A DNA stretch of 64,000 nt from Bacteroidia bacterium. GTDB taxonomy: Bacteria > Bacteroidota > Bacteroidia > UBA7662. Below are positions 1,286 through 45,193 of the stretch, piece by piece. The stretch is from contig JBMOHV010000001.1 of the NCBI GenBank assembly GCA_049317645.1, positions 975 to 64,974 on the forward strand, written 5' to 3'. Numbering within the stretch: the stretch's first letter is position 1; every line of letters begins with the position of its first letter. The notes beneath the pieces were generated by a model. That model searched no databases. It saw only the letters and a program-made list of their open reading frames with translations, and was not told the DNA's origin. The position numbers and the translations under genes were made by a program.

Positions 1286-4200
1286 CGTGCCATGGACAAA
1301 CCCAGCCCCATCCCCTGCGATCGGGTGCTAAAGCTGACCTCAAATATTCGCTCCTGAAGGGCCGGATCGATTCCGTTCCCGTAATCCCGTATCCTCGTAA
1401 CGACCTGCTCATGAACCAAGGTCATCCCCAAATCCAAACGGACCTTCCCGTCTTCGCCAGGTGTTGCTCCATCGCTCACGGCCTGGCAGGCGTTTTGTAA
1501 CAAATTCTGAAGCACACGTTGCAATCGGCTTTTGTTGCCCCAAACCTCCCCCTTCCCTTCTGGAATTCGATCGGTCCAATGAACCTGAATTTGTTCGCCG
1601 TACCATGCCACCACCTCATCGACCGCCTCCGGCCAAGAAAACCTTTCCTTGTCCGCCTCCTTTTCTTTGGCGAATTCACGGTAGGTATCCGCTATTTCAG
1701 TCAGAAAATCAATTTGTTGCAGAATGAGTTTCGCGTCGTTTTCAAACTTTTGGGTGAAGACCTCCGGGTTCTGGGCCTTGTCCCGTAACATCTTTTGAAT
1801 ACGCAACTTCATCGGCGTGAGCGGATTCTTGATATCGTGGGCAATCTGCCGCGCCATTTCTTTCCAGGCGGTATTGCGTTCAGCGGAGGCCAATTTGGCT
1901 TCGTTTTCGGCCAAGGACTGCACCATTTGGTTGTAGGATTTGAGCAATAGCCCCAATTCCCCCCGGCCCTGGTCTTCGTTAATGGTGTTCTTTCGGCCGG
2001 ATTTGGTTTGTAGCATGGCTTTGGTAAGGGTCTGAAGGGGGGCGGCAACGCCTTTGGCCAAACGAAAGGCCAGGTACACCGCCAACAAGGTCACCAAAAT
2101 AAAAAACGAAAAAACACCGGCCAGGTATTCACTCAAGCCCCCCTTGTCCGTTTGGTTCAAAAAAGGCAAACCCAAAACAGCCAATACTTTTCCATCCGAA
2201 CCCCGCAATGCCTGATAGGCCCCTCGAAAATCCAAACGATCCAAACGCTCGTTGACCGAACGGTATTGGTTTTCTCCTTGGCTCAAGGAATGCCAAACAT
2301 CATAGGGCATCCAATCCGAAAGCAATTTTTGGTCAAACCAAAGACTGCGCGAGCCTCCTTTGAATCGCCCTCTTTCATCGTAAATATAAAAATCCAAATC
2401 ATTGACCGACGCCCAATCTCTCAAGGCGCGAACCGAGCCTTCGGACAAGGCAGGATCTTGAACGGAGAGATTCTGGGCAACCCGATAAAACTGATTCATT
2501 TGGGACCACATGGCCGTTTCGGCCTCTCGCTCAAAGCGGCGCGTGATGAACCAAGTGGTGAAGGCTACCAGCAAAGCAATCACCCCAAATACCAAGGCGG
2601 TGGAGGCCCATTGAACTTTGGTTTGAAACCGTAGTTCAGCCCACCCGTTCCATGGGTTCCCCAGGCCCCATCGACGAATCCCTCCCATGGCCCGAAATCG
2701 TTCGGCCCAACCCAAAAACAGCCAAACCAAGGCTCCAAACGAAATCGGTAAAACCAACGAAGGCCAAGCCAAAGCCTGCACCGCCCATTGACCGGATGGA
2801 TTCCGGTAAACCAGCAAAGGACTCCCCCCATTCCATAAGACCAAACGCTCTTGGGATGCCTCCAACGAACCCTCCCAATGCTTGGGCACCCGGTAAGGAT
2901 ACGGAGCCAAGCCTTCCTGAAAAACCAAAAACCCATCTTGGTACAAGGCCAAACCCAGGGCCGACGAGCCACCAACATTCAAGCCGGAACTTGGACCCAA
3001 AATCGCCGGTATCGGAGAAAGACTTGGAAAGAATTTTTGATTTAACCCCACCGACAACGTATCCGGTACAACGCCCGCTGGTCCCAAAGCCACCCGAACC
3101 CGGTAGGCCGTCCGATTGGCCTCGGGTTTTTCTTGGACCGAGCCTTTCCATTGGGTGCCCCCATCGGGGGATGGTAGGAGGCTATCCTCCGCCGGATGAA
3201 ATTCAAAGGATTGAAAATCAAAAAAGGGTCGCAAGTTCCGCGAATGACGATCCAACAAGGCCTGCAAGGCCGCCCGGTCCGGGGGCGATCCCCCCACCGG
3301 GGATTGAAACAACGAATCGGACCGCAGCGCGTCAATCCAAGGCATAAAATAGGTATAGGCCTCAATGGGCCGGGCTTGAACGAGGGCCTCGACCCGACTT
3401 CTGGCCTGGTCCAAACCCACCCTGGCATGTTGAGCATAACACAAAACCGATAACAGCCCTCCAACCATCCCGTACAAGCCGATGCGCGTCCAGGTGGTCG
3501 CCAAAGGGCGATCCAAGGCCCAGCCAAGGACGGTCCAGGCCAGCCCCCCCAGACCCAAAACCAGCGACCATTCGTCCAATCCCTGCCAAATCCACCAGCC
3601 TGTTACGAGGCCCAGGGCCCCGGGTACCAGCCAACGACGGTACGGGGCCATGGAATCGCGTCCTGGACGTTGAGCAGAACGTGGAGACAAGAGTGCCGTC
3701 GCCAATCCCAAGACCAAAAGCAGCCAAGCGGTATCATCCCAAGACCAACCCAAGGGATCGGCCCAACCTATTTTGCGATGACCTGTATCCAGCGAACAGG
3801 CCAGCAAAACATAGGACCCCCAAACCCGGACAGGGCCGCTCCAAAAAGCTGAATAACGAGCGGTCATCGGAAAAACCCAGAGACCTACCAAGGCCAAAAC
3901 CGCTTGGCTCCACACCCAACCCTTCAGGGGCTCGTGCAGCAAAAAAAATTCCGACTCCCCCCATCGTCCTTTGTAAAGCCAGAGTAGGCCGGTGATCAAA
4001 CCAACGCCCCACGAAAACAAGGAAATCGTCGCCGACCAAGGGCCAGCCGAGGGACGATGCCGAATCCATAACATAGCCCACAAAAGGAGCCACAAAAACA
4101 TGCCAGCGTTGAACCAGGTTTGAATTCGGGGATCATCGACCGTTGCAGCGGCCTTGCCAGCCATCTTGAACCAAACCCTGCCCTGCCATCGAACCGGATG

Positions 4201-4716: not shown

Positions 4717-5676
4717 TTAGGGTTGAGGGCCCCATTCGCGGCGGACATAGGATGCCACCCCCTCCTCGAGGGAGGTGAATGCGTGGTCGCAGCCCAAACG
4801 CTCCATCCATTGCATGTCGGCGCAGGTATAATATTGATAGCTATCCCGAATGGACAGCGGGGTATCCACAAATTCAATCCGGGGCTCCAGCTGCAAACTG
4901 GCAAAAAGGGCGAGAACCAGGTCCTTGAACGTACGAGCCTGGCCGTTGCCCAGGTTGTAAAGCCCCCCCGGGTGCTCATGGGTCATGAACCAAAGGCAAA
5001 CAGCCGCCACATCATCAACCCAAACGAAATCTCGGCTTTGATGCCCGTCCTCAATATCCGGGCGATGCGAACGAAACAATTGGACCTTACCGGTTTCCTG
5101 AATTTGACGGTAGGCGTGCCATACCACGGATGCCATCCGGCCTTTGGGGCCTTCGCCCGGTCCGTAAACATTAAAAAATTTGAGCCCGGCCCAGCGCAAG
5201 GGCGTTCGATGCTGCTCCCGCACCCACAGGTCAAACCGATGCTTGGACCAGGCGTAGGGGTTCAAAGGGCGATAGCGTTCCAACCCATCCATTCCATCCT
5301 TGAACCCGTGCTCGCCGCCGCCGTACGTAGCGGCCGAAGAAGCATAAACCAACGGCAAGCCAAACTCAGCACATATTCTCCAAACTTCTTTGGAATAATT
5401 CAAATTCAAGCGATCAAAGACTTCCTCATCCCCCAGCATGGTGTCGGTTCTTGCACCCAAGTGAAAAACCTGCTGAACGTAGGCCTGGTTTTGGTGCAGC
5501 CAGTCAGGAAAAACATCCCGATGGACGGTTTGGCCAAGCAGTCCGGATTCCAGACGCTGGGCCTTGGCCCGGTCCTTCCAATCGTCCACCAAGACCAAAT
5601 CCCGGTATCCCAGCCCGTTGAGGCGAGCGGCCAGGTGCGCTCCAATAAATCCTCCAGCTCCTGTTACGATTATCAT
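4717..5676 (-). CDS. hldD: ADP-L-glycero-D-manno-heptose 6-epimerase (NAD-dependent epimerase family)
   Basis: MIIVTGAGGFIGAHLAARL Rossmann N-terminus and overall colinearity with HldD/RfaD. 319 aa. Confidence 0.7.
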   Translation of the reverse strand: MIIVTGAGGFIGAHLAARLNGLGYRDLVLVDDWKDRAKAQRLESGLLGQTVHRDVFPDWLHQNQAYVQQVFHLGARTDTMLGDEEVFDRLNLNYSKEVWRICAEFGLPLVYASSAATYGGGEHGFKDGMDGLERYRPLNPYAWSKHRFDLWVREQHRTPLRWAGLKFFNVYGPGEGPKGRMASVVWHAYRQIQETGKVQLFRSHRPDIEDGHQSRDFVWVDDVAAVCLWFMTHEHPGGLYNLGNGQARTFKDLVLALFASLQLEPRIEFVDTPLSIRDSYQYYTCADMQWMERLGCDHAFTSLEEGVASYVRREWGPQP

Positions 5677-7871: not shown

Positions 7872-9008
7872 ATGATGCTCCCCCCTCTGCCATCGGACTG
7901 GCCATTTATTCGTCGCTGTTTGGAATTGGCCGTAGCCCCCGGATCGGGGGTCTCTCCCAACCCCTTGGTAGCTGCCTTGATTACGTTGGACCACCGGGTC
8001 GTTGCGGAGGGTTTTCACCAGTCCTGCGGCTTGGCCCATGCCGAAATTAATGCGCTTAAGGCCTGGAAGTCCTACCTCCAAGATCACCCACTCGGTGAAG
8101 GAGCTGCTGCGGCCGCCACGCTCTTTATCAGCCTGGAACCCTGCAATCATCAAGGCCGAACCCCGCCCTGCACGGAGGCCATCCTTGCATCTGGAATTGG
8201 AACGGTGGTCTTCGCCTGCACCGATCCCCATCCCTTGGTCCAGGGCCGAGGTTTGGAACGACTTCGAACCGCCGGCCTGCAGGTCCGCGGTCCCGTTCTG
8301 GAAAAAGAAGCCCGCTGGATGAACCGACGCTTCGAAACCATGGTGCACCAAAATCGACCCTATACCGTACTCAAATGGGCTCGAACCGCGGACGGGTACC
8401 TTGACCAAGGAGAAAACGGGCCCGGGCCTCGCATCAGCGGACCCCAGGCCCAGCGTTGGGTCCATCGCCTCCGCAGGGAACAAGCCGCCTTGTTGGTGGG
8501 CGCCCGCACCCTCCTCCTTGACAACCCCCTTCTGGATGCCCGTTTGGCGGGTCCGCCCCATCCGCGCATCGCCGTTGCCGGGGATTCCCGACCCTGGCCA
8601 TTGAACCTTCAGGTATTTCAACGAAATCCCCAACCCCTCCGTTTGCCCTGGCCAACGGACGACTCGTCTGATTCGGGACCAACAAGAAGCCACCTGGGAC
8701 TCAAATCCTGGCATAAGACCCTTCTGGAGGAGGGACTGAATTCCGTGTTGGTCGAGGGTGGCGCCAAAACCCTGGAGCTTTTCCTTCAAGAAGGCTGTTG
8801 GGACGAAATTCATGTCATCGAAAACCCCCACATGCACACCGGAAAGGGGACGCCCGCTCCCGCTGAGCCCCAGACCCCCCTCTTCAGTGGAAACCTAGGC
8901 ACGGACCTTTACCGGGTCTATCTGCACCCCGCTTGGGTCCCTGGAAAAAATGCCCCCGACCTGGATTATCTTCGCGACCACTTTAGCCCTCAACTCTCCC
9001 CATCATGA
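7872..9008 (+). CDS. ribD: Bifunctional riboflavin biosynthesis protein RibD (pyrimidine deaminase/reductase)
   Basis: HAEINAL and PCNHQGRTPPC deaminase zinc motifs, followed by a RibD reductase-like C-terminal domain. 378 aa. Confidence 0.9.
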   Translation: MMLPPLPSDWPFIRRCLELAVAPGSGVSPNPLVAALITLDHRVVAEGFHQSCGLAHAEINALKAWKSYLQDHPLGEGAAAAATLFISLEPCNHQGRTPPCTEAILASGIGTVVFACTDPHPLVQGRGLERLRTAGLQVRGPVLEKEARWMNRRFETMVHQNRPYTVLKWARTADGYLDQGENGPGPRISGPQAQRWVHRLRREQAALLVGARTLLLDNPLLDARLAGPPHPRIAVAGDSRPWPLNLQVFQRNPQPLRLPWPTDDSSDSGPTRSHLGLKSWHKTLLEEGLNSVLVEGGAKTLELFLQEGCWDEIHVIENPHMHTGKGTPAPAEPQTPLFSGNLGTDLYRVYLHPAWVPGKNAPDLDYLRDHFSPQLSPS

Positions 9009-9700
9009 ATCACAAAATCCTCCATGCCGTCCTTTTGGCCACCGGGCTCTGGACTGTATCCTGCAATGCCCAAAACAACAAAATGAAAAAAGAAGACCTC
9101 AAAACCGAATTGGACAGCGTATCCTATGGTTTGGGCGTAAACATCGCCTCGAACATCAAAACCCAGGGAATTAAGGACTTGAACCTCCAGGCCATGATGA
9201 AAGGCATGGAACATATTTTGGCAGGTGACAGCCCCTGGATGGGTGATCAGGAAGCCATGATGGCCATTCAAGCCTATTTCACAAAAATCTCCGAAGCCAA
9301 GGGCGCCGAAAGCAAGAAAGAAGGCGAAGCCTACCTGGCCGAAAACGCCAAGAAAAAAGGGATCACAACCACCGCGAGCGGTCTGCAGTACGAAGTCGTC
9401 AAGATGGGCGACGGAGCCAAGCCCCTCGCGACCGACGAAGTCACCGTTCATTACCACGGAACCACCACCAAAGGGGAAGTATTTGATTCCTCCAAGGACC
9501 GCGGCGAACCCGCCACCTTCCCCCTCAACGGCGTGATCGCTGGCTGGACCGAAGGCCTGCAGCTCATGCCCAAAGGCTCCATCTTCAAGCTCTACCTGCC
9601 CAGCAATCTGGCCTACGGAGAGCGTGGTGCTGGCGAAAAAATCCCACCGCATGCTGTGCTGATTTTTGAAGTCGAATTGCTCGACATCAAGAATAAGTAA
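9005..9700 (+). CDS. FKBP-type peptidyl-prolyl cis-trans isomerase, probable lipoprotein (FkpA/Mip-like)
   Basis: Signal peptide with a Cys (LWTVSC). FKBP_N-like dimerisation region, then an FKBP domain (GQVIKGWTEGLQLM, LAYGERG, VLIFEVELLD). ATG overlaps the ribD stop (ATGA). Confidence 0.85.
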   Translation: MNHKILHAVLLATGLWTVSCNAQNNKMKKEDLKTELDSVSYGLGVNIASNIKTQGIKDLNLQAMMKGMEHILAGDSPWMGDQEAMMAIQAYFTKISEAKGAESKKEGEAYLAENAKKKGITTTASGLQYEVVKMGDGAKPLATDEVTVHYHGTTTKGEVFDSSKDRGEPATFPLNGVIAGWTEGLQLMPKGSIFKLYLPSNLAYGERGAGEKIPPHAVLIFEVELLDIKNK

Positions 9701-9725
9701 GCTGTACACCGGGACCCCTATCCCG

Positions 9726-9771
9726 ATCGAGCACCCATGGTGATCGAAATCGAGCACCCATGGTGATCGAA
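9726..9771. repeat. Perfect 23-bp tandem duplication (ATCGAGCACCCATGGTGATCGAA x2) covering the rlmH start codon
   Basis: Unit 1 at 9726-9748 and unit 2 at 9749-9771 are identical. Each contains an ATG (9737 and 9760). The first gives a 9-codon uORF, MVIEIEHPW, whose TGA overlaps the rlmH ATG. Confidence 0.9.
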
Positions 9772-10227
9772 CTTTTGTTGATTGGGAAAATTCGTGAAAC
9801 CTATGTGGTGAACGGATGCGAACATTTTCATGAACGCCTGCGGCATTATTGCCGGCTGACTGTTACGGAATTGGCCATCAAAGAACAAGGCCTTTCCCCG
9901 GAGGATCAAAAGTCAGCCGAGAATCGCTTGATTTTTAGCAAGTTAAAGCCACGCCACGCGCTGGTTGTCCTGGACGAACGGGGCCAATCGGTGAGCAGTC
10001 CGGGCCTGGCGGGGCAACTCGAAAAATGGGGCAATGCCGGAACGGACCGCGTTCAATTTGTGGTCGGCGGTGCCTACGGAGTTCAGGATGAATTACGTCG
10101 CAAGGCCGACTGGATTTGGTCCCTTTCTCCCCTTACCTTTCCGCATCCCTTGGTACGTCTGATTTTGATGGAACAATTGTACCGAGGGTTCAGCATTCTA
10201 CATCACCAACCCTATCATCATGGATAA
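9760..10227 (+). CDS. rlmH: 23S rRNA (pseudouridine1915-N3)-methyltransferase RlmH (SPOUT family)
   Basis: 155 aa and colinear with E. coli RlmH: ...VVLDERGQ..., FVVGGAYGV, WSLSPLTFPHPLVRLILMEQLYRGFSILHHQPYHH. Confidence 0.85.
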   Translation: MVIELLLIGKIRETYVVNGCEHFHERLRHYCRLTVTELAIKEQGLSPEDQKSAENRLIFSKLKPRHALVVLDERGQSVSSPGLAGQLEKWGNAGTDRVQFVVGGAYGVQDELRRKADWIWSLSPLTFPHPLVRLILMEQLYRGFSILHHQPYHHG

Positions 10228-10912
10228 GCCCGGTTCCCTTCATCGCCCCCAGCGGCGCGTTCTTCTGTTGGGCTACAGCGGTCTGGTGGGTCAAGCCTTG
10301 CTGGAACTTTGCATCAAGAGCGATCAGGTTTACGAAATTCTTTGCCTGGGCCGAACCCAGCCTCCCTTTACCCATTACAAATTACGCTGGGAGCGTTCCA
10401 CCCTCCTGGAGCCCGGAACCGATGCCGGTCATTACACGGCCATTGATCGGGTTTTTTGTTGCTTGGGGACCACCCTTCGCAAAGCAGGGTCCCTGGACGC
10501 CTTTCGCAGGGTCGATTACCAAATGGTGGTGGATGCCGGTATCCTGGCCCGTCAAGCAGGGGTTCCCTACTTTGGCGTTGTTTCATCCGCCGGCGCAAAT
10601 ACCCAATCCAGATTACCCTATGCCCGCACCAAGGGGGAAATGGAAGACGCTCTGCGTCGCTTGGAATTTGACCGGCTGAGCCTATTCCGCCCCGGCCTCT
10701 TGTTGGGCGATCGGAGCGAAAGCCGGCCTGCCGAATACGGGGCGAGGCTAACCTACCGACTCTGGGATTTTTTGTTGCCCCGCTCCGTGGCCGCCGTGGC
10801 CGCCAAGGACGTGGCCGCCGCGATGCTCTTGGACAGCCTCAAGGACGACTTGGGCACCGACCTTTACGACAGCCGCCAAATCAAAGTATTGGCCGGTTTA
10901 CTTCCCCGATAA
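10220..10912 (+). CDS. NAD(P)H-binding oxidoreductase (atypical short-chain dehydrogenase / HTATIP2-like)
   Basis: Rossmann motif VLLLGYSGLVGQAL. 230 aa. Start overlaps the rlmH stop by 8 nt. Confidence 0.5.
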   Translation: MDKPGSLHRPQRRVLLLGYSGLVGQALLELCIKSDQVYEILCLGRTQPPFTHYKLRWERSTLLEPGTDAGHYTAIDRVFCCLGTTLRKAGSLDAFRRVDYQMVVDAGILARQAGVPYFGVVSSAGANTQSRLPYARTKGEMEDALRRLEFDRLSLFRPGLLLGDRSESRPAEYGARLTYRLWDFLLPRSVAAVAAKDVAAAMLLDSLKDDLGTDLYDSRQIKVLAGLLPR

Positions 10913-11410
10913 CCCCGGCTTCGTCCCCGTTGATTCCCGCCGTCTCCAGGCGGAGACCGGAGGAATACCCGGCAGGCTTAACCAACCTTGGGGAGCGCGT
11001 TGCCTGACTTCCATCTCCAGACCGTTGGTCACCGCCACAACAGGTGCAGGTATCTGCATTTCATACCCCGAAACCTGCCACCAGACCTCTTCGCTCAGCA
11101 TCGTTTGCGGTGCTTTGCATTCCACCAAAACCAACGGTTCGCCCTCCTTGCCAATCACAAGCAAATCCATGCGCGTCGAGTCCACACCGCCCCCTACTCG
11201 CTTTTCGATGACCAATCGGTTCTTGGGATAGCCCAAGTGGTTCACCAAATAATGGGCCAGGTGTTGGCGGACCCATTCCTCGGGACCCAGAACCAACCAG
11301 CGACGCCGGAACGCATCCCAAACCTCCTCACGCTCGTTGTGCCAACGACGAAGCAGCGCCACCTCAGGAAAAAGGAAGGTTCGATTCAATGGGGGCCTAT
11401 TCTCCATCAT
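10898..11410 (-). CDS. Stand-alone HsdR_N-like (type I restriction enzyme R N-terminal domain) protein, putative PD-(D/E)xK nuclease fold
   Basis: 170 aa. Core ...MDLLVIGKEGEPLVLVECKAP..., with the D...E-x-K arrangement typical of PD-(D/E)xK and HsdR_N small proteins of Bacteroidota. Confidence 0.5.
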   Translation of the reverse strand: MMENRPPLNRTFLFPEVALLRRWHNEREEVWDAFRRRWLVLGPEEWVRQHLAHYLVNHLGYPKNRLVIEKRVGGGVDSTRMDLLVIGKEGEPLVLVECKAPQTMLSEEVWWQVSGYEMQIPAPVVAVTNGLEMEVRQRAPQGWLSLPGIPPVSAWRRRESTGTKPGLSGK

Positions 11411-39485: not shown

Positions 39486-40727
39486 ATGCCCAACAACCCC
39501 ATGACCACTGCGCAGGCCCTGCACCTGGAACAAACCTACGGTGCCCAGAATTACCATCCGATTCCGGTGGTGATCAGCCGGGCCCATGGTTGCAACGTCT
39601 GGGACCCGGAAGGACGGGAATACCTGGATTTTTTGTCGGCCTATTCGGCCGTGAACCAAGGCCATACCCACCCCCGATTGGTTAAAGTAATTACAGAACA
39701 AGCAAGCACTTTGACACTGACATCCAGGGCTTTTTATAACGACAAATTGGGCCTGTATTGCGAAACCATGTGCCGAATTTTTGGCTACGATCGCTTGCTG
39801 CCCATGAACACAGGGGTGGAGGCGGCTGAGACATCGGTCAAATTGGCCAGACGCTGGGCCTACGAAGTCAAGGGCGTGGAGGCCGACCGAGCCGAGGTCA
39901 TTTTCCCGGAAGGGAATTTTTGGGGGCGGTCCTTGGGAGCGATTTCGGCCAGCTCCGACCCCGAATCCCGTGGCGGTTTTGGCCCCTTTGTCCCTGGTAT
40001 GCGCCTGGTTCCCTACAACGATTTGCAAGCCCTTGAGGAAGCCTTGCAAAACCCCCGTGTTGCGGCCTTTATGGTCGAGCCCATCCAGGGAGAAGCCGGC
40101 GTTGTCCTTCCCGACCCTGGTTACCTCCAAGGAGTTCGGGAACTCTGCACCCGCTACCAGGTTCTCATGATCGCCGACGAAATCCAAACCGGCCTGGGAC
40201 GTACCGGTGCCCTGTTGGCCTGCGACCACGAAGGGGTGCGCCCGGACTTGTTGGTTCTGGCCAAGGCACTGGGCGGAGGCATGTTACCTGTTTCGGCCGT
40301 CTTGGGTTCGGACGAAGTCATGCTCCGCATTCGACCCGGTCAGCACGGTTCCACCTTTGGTGGCAATCCACTGGCTTGCGCTGTGGCCATGGAGGCGGTT
40401 CAAATTATCTTGGACGAAGACCTGGCCAACCATGCAGCCCATCGCGGCGAACAGCTCCACCGCGGTTTGATGGAATTGGTGACCGCCTTTCCGGTTCTTC
40501 AAGCCACCCGGGGCCAAGGCCTGTTGCGGGCCCTGGTCTTTGGGAATGAAGGCTCCGAAACTGCTTGGGATTTTTGTATGCTCCTCAAAGACCACGGACT
40601 TTTGGCCAAACCAACCCACGGACATATCGTTCGGCTTGCTCCCCCGCTGGTCATCAGCGAGCAACAAACCCAACAAGCCATCGAGATTTTGGCGAAGTGC
40701 CTGTCCCAATTGCCTACTCAAGGATAG
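39486..40727 (+). CDS. rocD: Ornithine aminotransferase (ornithine--oxo-acid transaminase, class III PLP aminotransferase)
   Basis: High colinearity with OAT: YHPIPVV, DFLSAYSAVNQGH, the DEIQTGLGRTG PLP motif and LAKALGGG (Lys). 413 aa. Confidence 0.9.
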   Translation: MPNNPMTTAQALHLEQTYGAQNYHPIPVVISRAHGCNVWDPEGREYLDFLSAYSAVNQGHTHPRLVKVITEQASTLTLTSRAFYNDKLGLYCETMCRIFGYDRLLPMNTGVEAAETSVKLARRWAYEVKGVEADRAEVIFPEGNFWGRSLGAISASSDPESRGGFGPFVPGMRLVPYNDLQALEEALQNPRVAAFMVEPIQGEAGVVLPDPGYLQGVRELCTRYQVLMIADEIQTGLGRTGALLACDHEGVRPDLLVLAKALGGGMLPVSAVLGSDEVMLRIRPGQHGSTFGGNPLACAVAMEAVQIILDEDLANHAAHRGEQLHRGLMELVTAFPVLQATRGQGLLRALVFGNEGSETAWDFCMLLKDHGLLAKPTHGHIVRLAPPLVISEQQTQQAIEILAKCLSQLPTQG

Positions 40728-40759
40728 GCCATGCGGATTCAAGGATAGGCCCTGCGGAT
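40718..40759. repeat. Near-perfect 21-bp tandem duplication (TCAAGGATAGGCC[A/C]TGCGGAT x2) spanning the rocD stop codon
   Basis: Copy 1 at 40718-40738 contains the rocD TAG (40725-40727). Copy 2 at 40739-40759 differs at one base. Confidence 0.85.
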
Positions 40760-44054: not shown

Positions 44055-45155
44055 TCATTTGAGCCGGTTAAGCCCCTGCAGGGCCTGAGGATACCCCTTT
44101 TGGAGGCGAAGGCATTCCCGGTAATCGGCCGATGCTTCCGCCTTGCGGTCCATCATTTCGTAACACAGCCCTCGGTTTGCCAAGGCCGGCAAATCAGCAG
44201 AGCCCAAGGCTAGGACCCGATCAAAGCCCTGCAAAGCTGGGTCGTATTTCTGCTCCAATAAATCCAGGTAGGCCAGGTTGAAAAGGGCATCCCGATGCGA
44301 CTTGTTCAATTGGAGAAGGGCCCGGTAATCCTGCCGGGCCGAGTCAGGGTAACCCTGGCCCTGCAATAACATCGCCCTGGCGTAGAGAGCCTCCGTATGG
44401 CCCGGACGGATTTCCAGCACATTGCTGAAATAGCGATGGGCCAAGCGAGGGTCTGGTTCGCGCAATCCCAGTTCGAGGTAAGCGGCGTAGAGGCGGGGGT
44501 CTTGTTCGATCGCGGTGAGCCAAGCCGAACGGGCCGCGGTGGTGTCCTTCTGTTCCAGGTGGGCCATGCCCTTGAGGAGGTAGGCCTCGGCCAAACGTTT
44601 GTCTCGTCGCAATGCTTCGTTGAGGTATTTGAAAGCCACCGAATATTGTCGATTAATCAAGGCCAATTCGCCCCGACGTAGGTAGGCTCTCACCAAGTTG
44701 GGATTGCGGGCCATGGCCACTCGCAATGCGTCGTCGGCCTCCGATATCAACCCAATACGGGTGTAGATCTCCCCCAGTATGCAATAAAAAAGAGCATTCC
44801 CCGTGTCCAGCAACAAGGCCGACTTGATATCGGCCGTGGCTTTGCGCAAGGCTTCCCGGGGCTGATCCGGAGACGCTTGGGCAGCGGCCGCAAGGCCGGA
44901 TTCAGTCGTATTGGCCGAAACATCGCGATCGCGTTGCAGCCACCAATCGGCCCGTTCAGCGTACGCCGTCGCATCCGAACCATTCATCGCAATCCGACGA
45001 TTGAGATCTTTCAAAACCGCTTCGGCATCGGGAGCACTTTTTCGTTCCTCGCCCGCCATCTGCTTTGCCTGATCGCTGTTGCATGCCAACAAAAACCAAA
45101 AACCCAAGGGCAGGAACAAGACGACGACCCAACGTTGCACGGAACTGACCATTAC
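44055..45155 (-). CDS. Tetratricopeptide-repeat lipoprotein
   Basis: Probable start MVSSVQRW..., with lipobox FLLAC. Multiple TPR-like repeats ([26 protein letters not shown]...). The ORF table extends it to 45245. Confidence 0.55.
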
Positions 45156-45193
45156 TTTTACCAAAAATAGCTTTCGCCAAAAATAGCGACCCC

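Follow-up and report, generated by a model that had tools for sequence, protein, structure and literature searches.

A 23-bp tandem duplication of the rlmH initiation region in one clade of uncultured freshwater Bacteroidota

The rlmH locus and the duplicated segment

The genes and sequence features described here are collected in Table 1, with positions counted along the window, that is, the whole stretch of 64,000 nucleotides that was analysed. The rlmH gene is located between a gene for an FKBP-type peptidyl-prolyl isomerase, itself preceded by ribD, and a gene for a protein of 230 amino acids. The ribD and FKBP genes overlap by 4 nt (ATGA, 9005-9008) and rlmH overlaps the next gene by 8 nt (ATGGATAA, 10220-10227); from this layout the ribD-FKBP-rlmH-230aa cluster looks like an operon already using stop/start overlaps. 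The G+C content of the lineage is about 55%. GC skew is negative in almost all 2-kb bins of positions 1-64000 (cumulative value -2.9), which places the whole window on one replichore, with more C than G on the plus strand.

The identity of RlmH is given by its match to the NCBIfam RlmH profiles, in which its first residue aligns with the first profile position (residues 1-154 to profile positions 1-155/156, E 1.4e-39) and by the presence of Pfam PF02590; its homologues are named 23S rRNA (pseudouridine1915-N3)-methyltransferase in the source records. The relatives of this protein begin with MVIELLLIGK, MWIELLFIGK or MKI...GK, and an equivalent start codon was identified in all of them. On these alignments ATG 9760 is the true rlmH start.

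The 23-mer ATCGAGCACCCATGGTGATCGAA is present twice at this start, head-to-tail and with 23/23 bases identical. Tandem Repeats Finder (TRF) describes 9726-9771 as a repeat of period 23 with 2.0 copies, 100% matches and a score of 92. By chance, 64 kb of the window's composition should contain 1.2e-9 perfect 23-nt tandem duplications, and perfect tandems with a period of 12 or longer were absent from all of 30 first-order Markov simulations. An earlier reading of this DNA from the sequence only had reported a perfect 23-bp tandem duplication at 9726-9771, and the inspection of the letters, TRF and the chance expectation all agree with it. The unit has no other site in the 64-kb window, even with 3 mismatches allowed (shuffled sequences gave 0 matches), and this confinement to a single site led to the rejection of a repeated element or REP-like palindrome. 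Another TRF match, at 3504-3545 (period 22, 81%), is located within an ORF of 1180 aa.

The duplicated segment corresponds to the rlmH initiation region, from -11 to +12. The 23-nt periodicity ends exactly at 9726 and 9771 (G at 9725 versus A at 9748; C at 9772 versus A at 9749) and, as it stops at both unit edges, the junction contains 0 nt of microhomology. Slippage between the internal GATCGA repeats, which are 17 nt apart, was rejected as a one-step origin, since it would yield a unit of 17 nt and not of 23 nt.

The ATG of the upstream copy, at 9737, is referred to as the decoy. It opens a short upstream ORF (uORF) which reads ATG GTG ATC GAA ATC GAG CAC CCA TGG TGA, that is MVIEIEHPW*, with the TGA at 9764-9766, in agreement with the sequence-only reading. 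That reading had also placed the TGA inside the rlmH ATG, a detail which is corrected here: the stop is formed by the last base of rlmH codon 2 and the first two bases of codon 3. The two co-directional ORFs share the junction ATGGTGA, an overlap of 7 nt or a spacing of "-7", and the position of the stop follows automatically from the native ATGGTGA and the 23-nt period, with no need of design. Between the FKBP stop and the decoy there are 36 nt, as there are before the rlmH ATG in single-copy relatives, and thus the decoy inherits the whole ancestral leader. The authentic AUG retains just 11 native upstream bases and is preceded by AAA at -11 to -13, where the single-copy relatives have G, C/T and C at -11, -12 and -13. 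No Shine-Dalgarno-like motif was identified in the rlmH leader, and no terminator-like or sigma-70-type promoter-like site in the FKBP-rlmH spacer, in a scan that excludes the Bacteroidota promoter types. The peptide MVIEIEHPW is not known to contain an arrest motif.

Table 1. Genes and sequence features at the rlmH start and at the other duplicated sites of the window
Feature	Position	Strand	Remarks
FKBP-type peptidyl-prolyl isomerase gene	9005-9700	+	TAA 36 nt before the decoy ATG; co-directional
Copy 1 of the 23-nt unit	9726-9748	+	-11 to -1, decoy ATG 9737 and 9 bases beyond
Predicted RNA quasi-palindromes	9727-9770 (9727-9747, 9750-9770)	+	Folding prediction
uORF of 9 codons	9737-9766	+	Frame +2 relative to rlmH; product of the duplication
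Copy 2 of the 23-nt unit	9749-9771	+	Authentic rlmH ATG 9760 plus codons 2-4
rlmH, 155 aa	9760-10227	+	Intact; pN/pS at most 0.2 in the double-copy clade
Degenerate two-copy repeat of 21-22 nt	10893-10934		Stop of the 230-aa gene downstream of rlmH; old
rocD-stop duplication, 21 nt x2, 1 mismatch	40718-40738 and 40739-40759	+	Spans the rocD TAG
Third duplication, 16 nt x2, 14/16 identical (cttttaccaaaaatag / ctttcgccaaaaatag)	45155-45186		Divergent spacer

Each unit is predicted to fold as UCGA-G-CACC / CAU / GGUG-A-UCGA (-8.5 kcal/mol, z -3.5), a hairpin of 4+4 bp with one internal mismatch in which the AUG lies partly in the 3-nt CAU loop and partly in the first stem pair, and both units together give one long predicted hairpin of -19 kcal/mol (z -3.2). 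The start-codon hairpin is predicted in all relatives with at least 95% RlmH identity, including those of loci L020, L022 and L023. Its covariation comprises 1 pair with a double change (term +0.49), so that retention is by shared sequence only. A different, non-significant hairpin (z -1.0) was obtained for L024 and none for the relatives at 54% identity. A conserved regulatory structure is thus unsupported, there being essentially no covariation and no hairpin in distant relatives. The predicted energy needed to open -12 to +13 at the rlmH AUG is 12.4 kcal/mol for the double leader, 12.6 for the single-copy reconstruction and 13.2 for L020, with 13.7 kcal/mol for the decoy AUG. An effect of the duplication on the predicted accessibility of the rlmH start was rejected on these values, which are the same with or without it. 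A search of 9000-10500 against Rfam returned two sub-threshold chance matches to snoRNA models only, both outside the duplication. In the relatives at 54% identity (L078, about 992-1067) the FKBP-rlmH spacer has 76 nt and presents a GC-rich hairpin that resembles a terminator, with a T run after it (GCGGCCTTGCATTTGCAGGGCCGTTTTGG); judging by this spacer, rlmH may be transcribed separately in them.

Sister lineages and the double-copy clade

The sister loci came from a scan for RlmH in one genome per GTDB species and from a pattern scan of JGI metagenome contigs. The latter comprises just 6 loci, all of them from single-copy sister lineages, and informs on polarity, not on population frequency. 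The closest relatives are recorded as freshwater MAGs assigned to Bacteroidetes, Sphingobacteriia, Cytophagia or Bacteroidia. A single copy was identified in 12/12 sister loci, 11 of them with 72-96% nucleotide identity in the region, the other being L077; the closest single-copy locus is L020, with 96.0% identity. The sister leader is ...TATCCC[C/T]GTCGAGCACCC ATGGTGATCGAAC... or a more diverged version of it. No sister lineage (identity of 96% or less) has the uORF, nor do the relatives whose RlmH is 54-89% identical. This comparison of orthologous junctions, with every sister single-copy and the uORF unconserved, speaks against the selected leader-peptide arrangement that the sequence-only reading had offered as one of its two explanations, and it is the outcome under which that reading itself would abandon the arrangement.

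Both copies in the window begin with A (9726 and 9749) where single-copy relatives have G, and the preceding base is also different: the sisters read ..CCC[C/T]GTCGAG.. where copy 1 reads ..CCCGATCGAG... The pre-duplication allele, a single copy with A at 9726, was not found among the sampled relatives, and this, together with the G/A difference, implies one or more additional changes before the duplication or together with it. L023, L045 and L048 are about 93-94% identical to the window overall, yet over 9700-9760 their rlmH leader is that of the far more distant L022 type (about 81%), a pattern that suggests a region made mosaic by recombination.

The contigs of the window's own clade were looked up by the exact RlmH, FKBP, HSDR_N_2-domain and PNP_UDP_1 proteins of the window, a retrieval that biases the sample towards close relatives. 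This group comprises 20 distinct contigs from differing samples, projects and assemblers (Logan, ENA and JGI), with 97.35-99.86% identity to the window over about 6.5 kb. Both 23-nt copies are present in 20/20 of them, always exactly two, and no copy-number variation of the kind expected at a hypervariable or contingency locus was found across these contigs. The exact leader of the window was identified in 18 of the 20. The exceptions are L016/L075 and L019, where unit position 6 of copy 1 changes from G to C and unit position 10 of copy 2 from C to T. In the L016/L019 lineage the peptide becomes MVIEIEHSW* (Pro to Ser), with the length and the stop of the uORF kept. These two substitutions per 46 nt, against the 1.2 or so expected from the 2.65% flank divergence of L019, are consistent with unconstrained drift.

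Mis-assembly can yield short perfect tandem copies, and an assembly artefact had been raised by the sequence-only reading as a point to exclude. The same 46-nt structure was identified in 20 independent contigs, and in two lineages the copies have diverged at two positions, which refutes an artefact of assembly or sequencing in the window contig. The duplication is derived: the split from L020 (96.0%) is single-copy and the deepest sampled split of the clade (97.35%) is double-copy, so it arose between them. It is fixed in the clade and older than the divergence within it. The description of the event as a "very recent slippage" can be kept only in so far as it names a derived mutational event, as the duplication predates an internal split of up to 2.65% and classic slippage does not fit a junction with 0 nt of microhomology.

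The rlmH gene is intact in every double-copy contig. In the contigs retrieved independently of the RlmH sequence most of its changes are synonymous, with 3 synonymous and 1 non-synonymous in L016 and 6 and 4 in L019, and pN/pS is at most 0.2. The gene has therefore been under purifying selection since the duplication, and the decoy did not silence it.

Other short duplications and indels

The duplication at the rocD stop, also mentioned by the sequence-only reading, is real and specific to the window clade: it was identified in all the window-clade contigs examined and is single-copy in sisters at 95.8-97.5% identity. RocD itself is recognised by TIGR01885 with 602 bits, against a cut-off of 378. 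Among the loci compared at this site (L049-L058 and L081-L090), copy 1 in several strains carries ggccatgcgg, the allele of the single-copy loci L082-84, and copy 2 carries ggaaatgcgg, the allele of the single-copy loci L081/85/86, with close variants in L088 and L090. This distribution suggests unequal recombination between diverged alleles, or a later exchange of alleles. L082-L084 have ACT TAA for ACT CAA two codons before the usual stop, and RocD is called there with 406 aa versus 413 aa, a difference of which the stop change alone accounts for just 2 residues; variation is evidently tolerated at the C-terminus of RocD. In L097 (about 78-83% identity, also in L087) a two-gene cassette with an AbiEii-family toxin domain is located between rplT and rocD (L097 10584-11523). 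A mobile-element footprint was rejected for this spacer, since the AbiEii cassette of L097 is found in it without a flanking copy of the 21-mer.

The third duplication is located within a spacer of 41 nt between a minus-strand ATG (45150-45152) and a plus-strand ATG (45194). The 16-nt insertion is missing in 7/8 of the sister loci compared, where gene calls give a spacer of 25 nt, and is not listed for L093. Upstream of the plus-strand gene, an A-rich tract is doubled by it.

Copy number varies at the stop of the 230-aa gene. L023 has the 22-nt unit of this site, CCGGTTTACTTCCCCGTTAGGC, in 3 perfect copies (4134-4195) and L048 in 2 perfect copies (about 4933-4976); 2 degenerate copies are found in the window and in L020, and 1 copy in L022. 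This stop also overlaps the 3' end of the convergent HSDR_N_2-domain gene.

The comparison of indels covers 26.5 kb: about 20 kb around rocD, set against nine loci (eight of them sister loci), and 6.5 kb around rlmH. With the exception of one 4-nt indel in L099, the only indels of at least 4 nt are the three tandem duplications of 23, 21 and 16 nt. All three are longer in the window, the 23-mer being the sole indel relative to L020 over the 6.5 kb around rlmH, and the junction microhomology is 0-1 nt in all three of these clade-specific events. In the loci of this group aligned here, mutation has repeatedly produced short tandem duplications at the boundaries of genes. The duplications at the rocD stop codon and in the divergent spacer, two of the clade-specific three, occupy sites for which a translational logic is irrelevant, and they make it less likely that the rlmH duplication has a special selected role.

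Interpretation and comparison with known systems

Bacteroidia do not use Shine-Dalgarno pairing, as described in Flavobacterium johnsoniae (Baez et al. 2019, PMC6847099). In this organism low structure and adenines at -3, -6, -12 and -13 modulate initiation, and AUG is depleted at -21 to -1 of Bacteroidia start codons (PMC6847099). These determinants were measured in a flavobacterium with 34% G+C and are applied here to a lineage of about 55%.

The reading preferred here, with a probability of roughly 0.7, is that of a genuine 23-bp duplication of the rlmH initiation region which is near-neutral or mildly deleterious and is tolerated as a by-product. It has a single origin, on the branch from which one clade of an uncultured freshwater species of Bacteroidota descends, and was then fixed. 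The upstream copy would act as a decoy start, from which ribosomes would make an out-of-frame peptide of 9 residues and stop at the UGA over rlmH codons 2-3, and the downstream copy, with its native -11 to +12 context, would still start rlmH. Some of the ribosomes would reinitiate at the overlapping rlmH AUG and others would start directly at the second copy. The decoy would be tolerated because the authentic start persists and its predicted accessibility does not change, because uORF ribosomes would be released on the rlmH AUG, where termination-reinitiation is possible, and because RlmH would be a low-demand accessory rRNA modifier.

The dependence of rlmH on re-initiation, proposed by the sequence-only reading, is plausible from the geometry of the two frames. 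The native context and the unchanged predicted accessibility of copy 2 mean that direct initiation of rlmH should remain possible too. Fixation in 20/20 contigs without a revertant could reflect positive selection or hitchhiking. Given the AUG depletion at Bacteroidia starts, a strong decoy at -23 is perhaps costly, and the fact that it has persisted speaks slightly against strict neutrality.

An alternative is that of a selected leader-peptide or coupling device, in which rlmH would depend on translation of the uORF, or be tuned by it, through reinitiation or through unfolding of the hairpin. The stop/start overlap ATGGTGA and a decoy holding the complete ancestral leader are what such a device would present, both AUGs are placed in small predicted hairpins that a translating ribosome would melt, the arrangement is found throughout the clade with the length and stop of the uORF persisting in the diverged L016/L019, and the putative operon contains other overlaps. 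The stop position, however, is automatic, the uORF is missing in all sister lineages and limited to one clade at about 97% identity or more, and the one substitution within it is non-synonymous. As the predicted accessibility of the rlmH start is also unchanged, and like duplications were fixed on the same branch at sites without such logic, a selected device is considered unlikely. A related and bolder proposal, held to be improbable to a similar extent, is that the uORF is young but functional, the decoy capturing most ribosomes and RlmH being sustained or tuned by reinitiation at ATGGTGA, or else that the three duplications mark a lineage-specific mutational process.

The duplication may instead have remodelled the leader adaptively, with the A-rich -11 to -13 and a longer unstructured standby region raising RlmH synthesis without Shine-Dalgarno pairing. 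The AAA gained upstream of ATG 9760 includes the two positions, -12 and -13, at which A promotes initiation in F. johnsoniae (PMC6847099), and both changes in L016/L019 could shift initiation towards the authentic start, one of them affecting -6 of the decoy (G to C) and the other replacing a C-G pair of the authentic hairpin by a U-G wobble. Nevertheless, point mutations would suffice for this end without a competing AUG, the predicted opening energy does not change, the sample consists of two substitutions and the determinants come from the low-G+C flavobacterium, so that this explanation is very doubtful. Regarding the origin, the duplications of 16-23 nt could have been left by a particular mechanism, for example when a staggered nick or break is filled in and rejoined, or as the target-site duplication of an excised element, and not by slippage. 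Their similar sizes, their 0-1 nt of microhomology, their status as the only indels of at least 4 nt on the branch in 26.5 kb, all of them insertions, and the match within 1 nt between the edges of the 23-nt unit and the base of the hairpin are in line with such a process. It is nevertheless quite unlikely, as there are three events only, neither an element nor a terminal repeat was identified beside the copies or between them, the AbiEii cassette of L097 has no flanking 21-mer in the same spacer, and a compact genome would keep only insertions at gene boundaries, which biases both their position and their sign.

If the duplication is a tolerated mutation, as in the preferred reading, it matters mostly for annotation: gene callers should avoid ATG 9737, and the 9-codon ORF is not a gene. 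The locus is also a natural test case, comprising two start codons with identical -11 to +12 context, 23 nt apart, in the Shine-Dalgarno-independent Bacteroidia, and it bears on the choice between equivalent AUGs and on reinitiation across a 7-nt overlap. Were the young uORF true, the locus would illustrate in nature how the initiation region of a gene can give rise to a uORF in a single step. The presence of homology-free duplications of 16-23 nt as the branch's indels of at least 4 nt in 26.5 kb is a small hint for a genome-wide check.

The locus can be compared with four known systems. With start selection in the Bacteroidia (PMC6847099) it shares closest relatives that are recorded as Bacteroidota MAGs, an rlmH leader without Shine-Dalgarno motif and the upstream adenines at -12/-13; in contrast, it counters the depletion of AUG by having a second AUG, in an identical local context, 23 nt upstream. 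Translational coupling is most efficient at spacings of -4 to +3 and falls with longer overlaps (Brown and Wade 2025, PMC12548453; Huber et al. 2023, PMC10666635), according to data from E. coli and Haloferax (PMC12548453, PMC10666635). As in coupled overlapping pairs (NTGA, TGATG and NTGNNTGA junctions), a co-directional ORF ends here a few nucleotides past the start of the next, and ATGGTGA belongs to the frame class of the -1/-4 overlaps, within the reported coupling range. The differences are that the upstream ORF is an unconserved 9-codon by-product and not a gene, and that its spacing is -7, whereas the enriched ones are -4, -1 or -8, in published data that are not from Bacteroidia.

Leader-peptide attenuators also have a short ORF directly upstream of the gene and hairpins around the start codons. 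In erm-type leaders, tandem duplications of the leader alter expression. The rlmH uORF differs from these attenuators by the lack of a conserved peptide, of sensing codons and of an arrest motif, by the lack of conservation outside one clade, and by a predicted opening energy of the rlmH start that is the same with and without the duplication, hairpins being predicted around both AUGs.

The last system comprises the short intergenic tandem duplications. The rlmH unit differs from them in being without a flanking direct repeat or microhomology, in its constant copy number and in containing a start codon. It has in common with them the identical head-to-tail copies, the derived state, the tolerant site and the slow divergence of the copies, and the duplication at the rlmH start is a new instance of this known kind of event.
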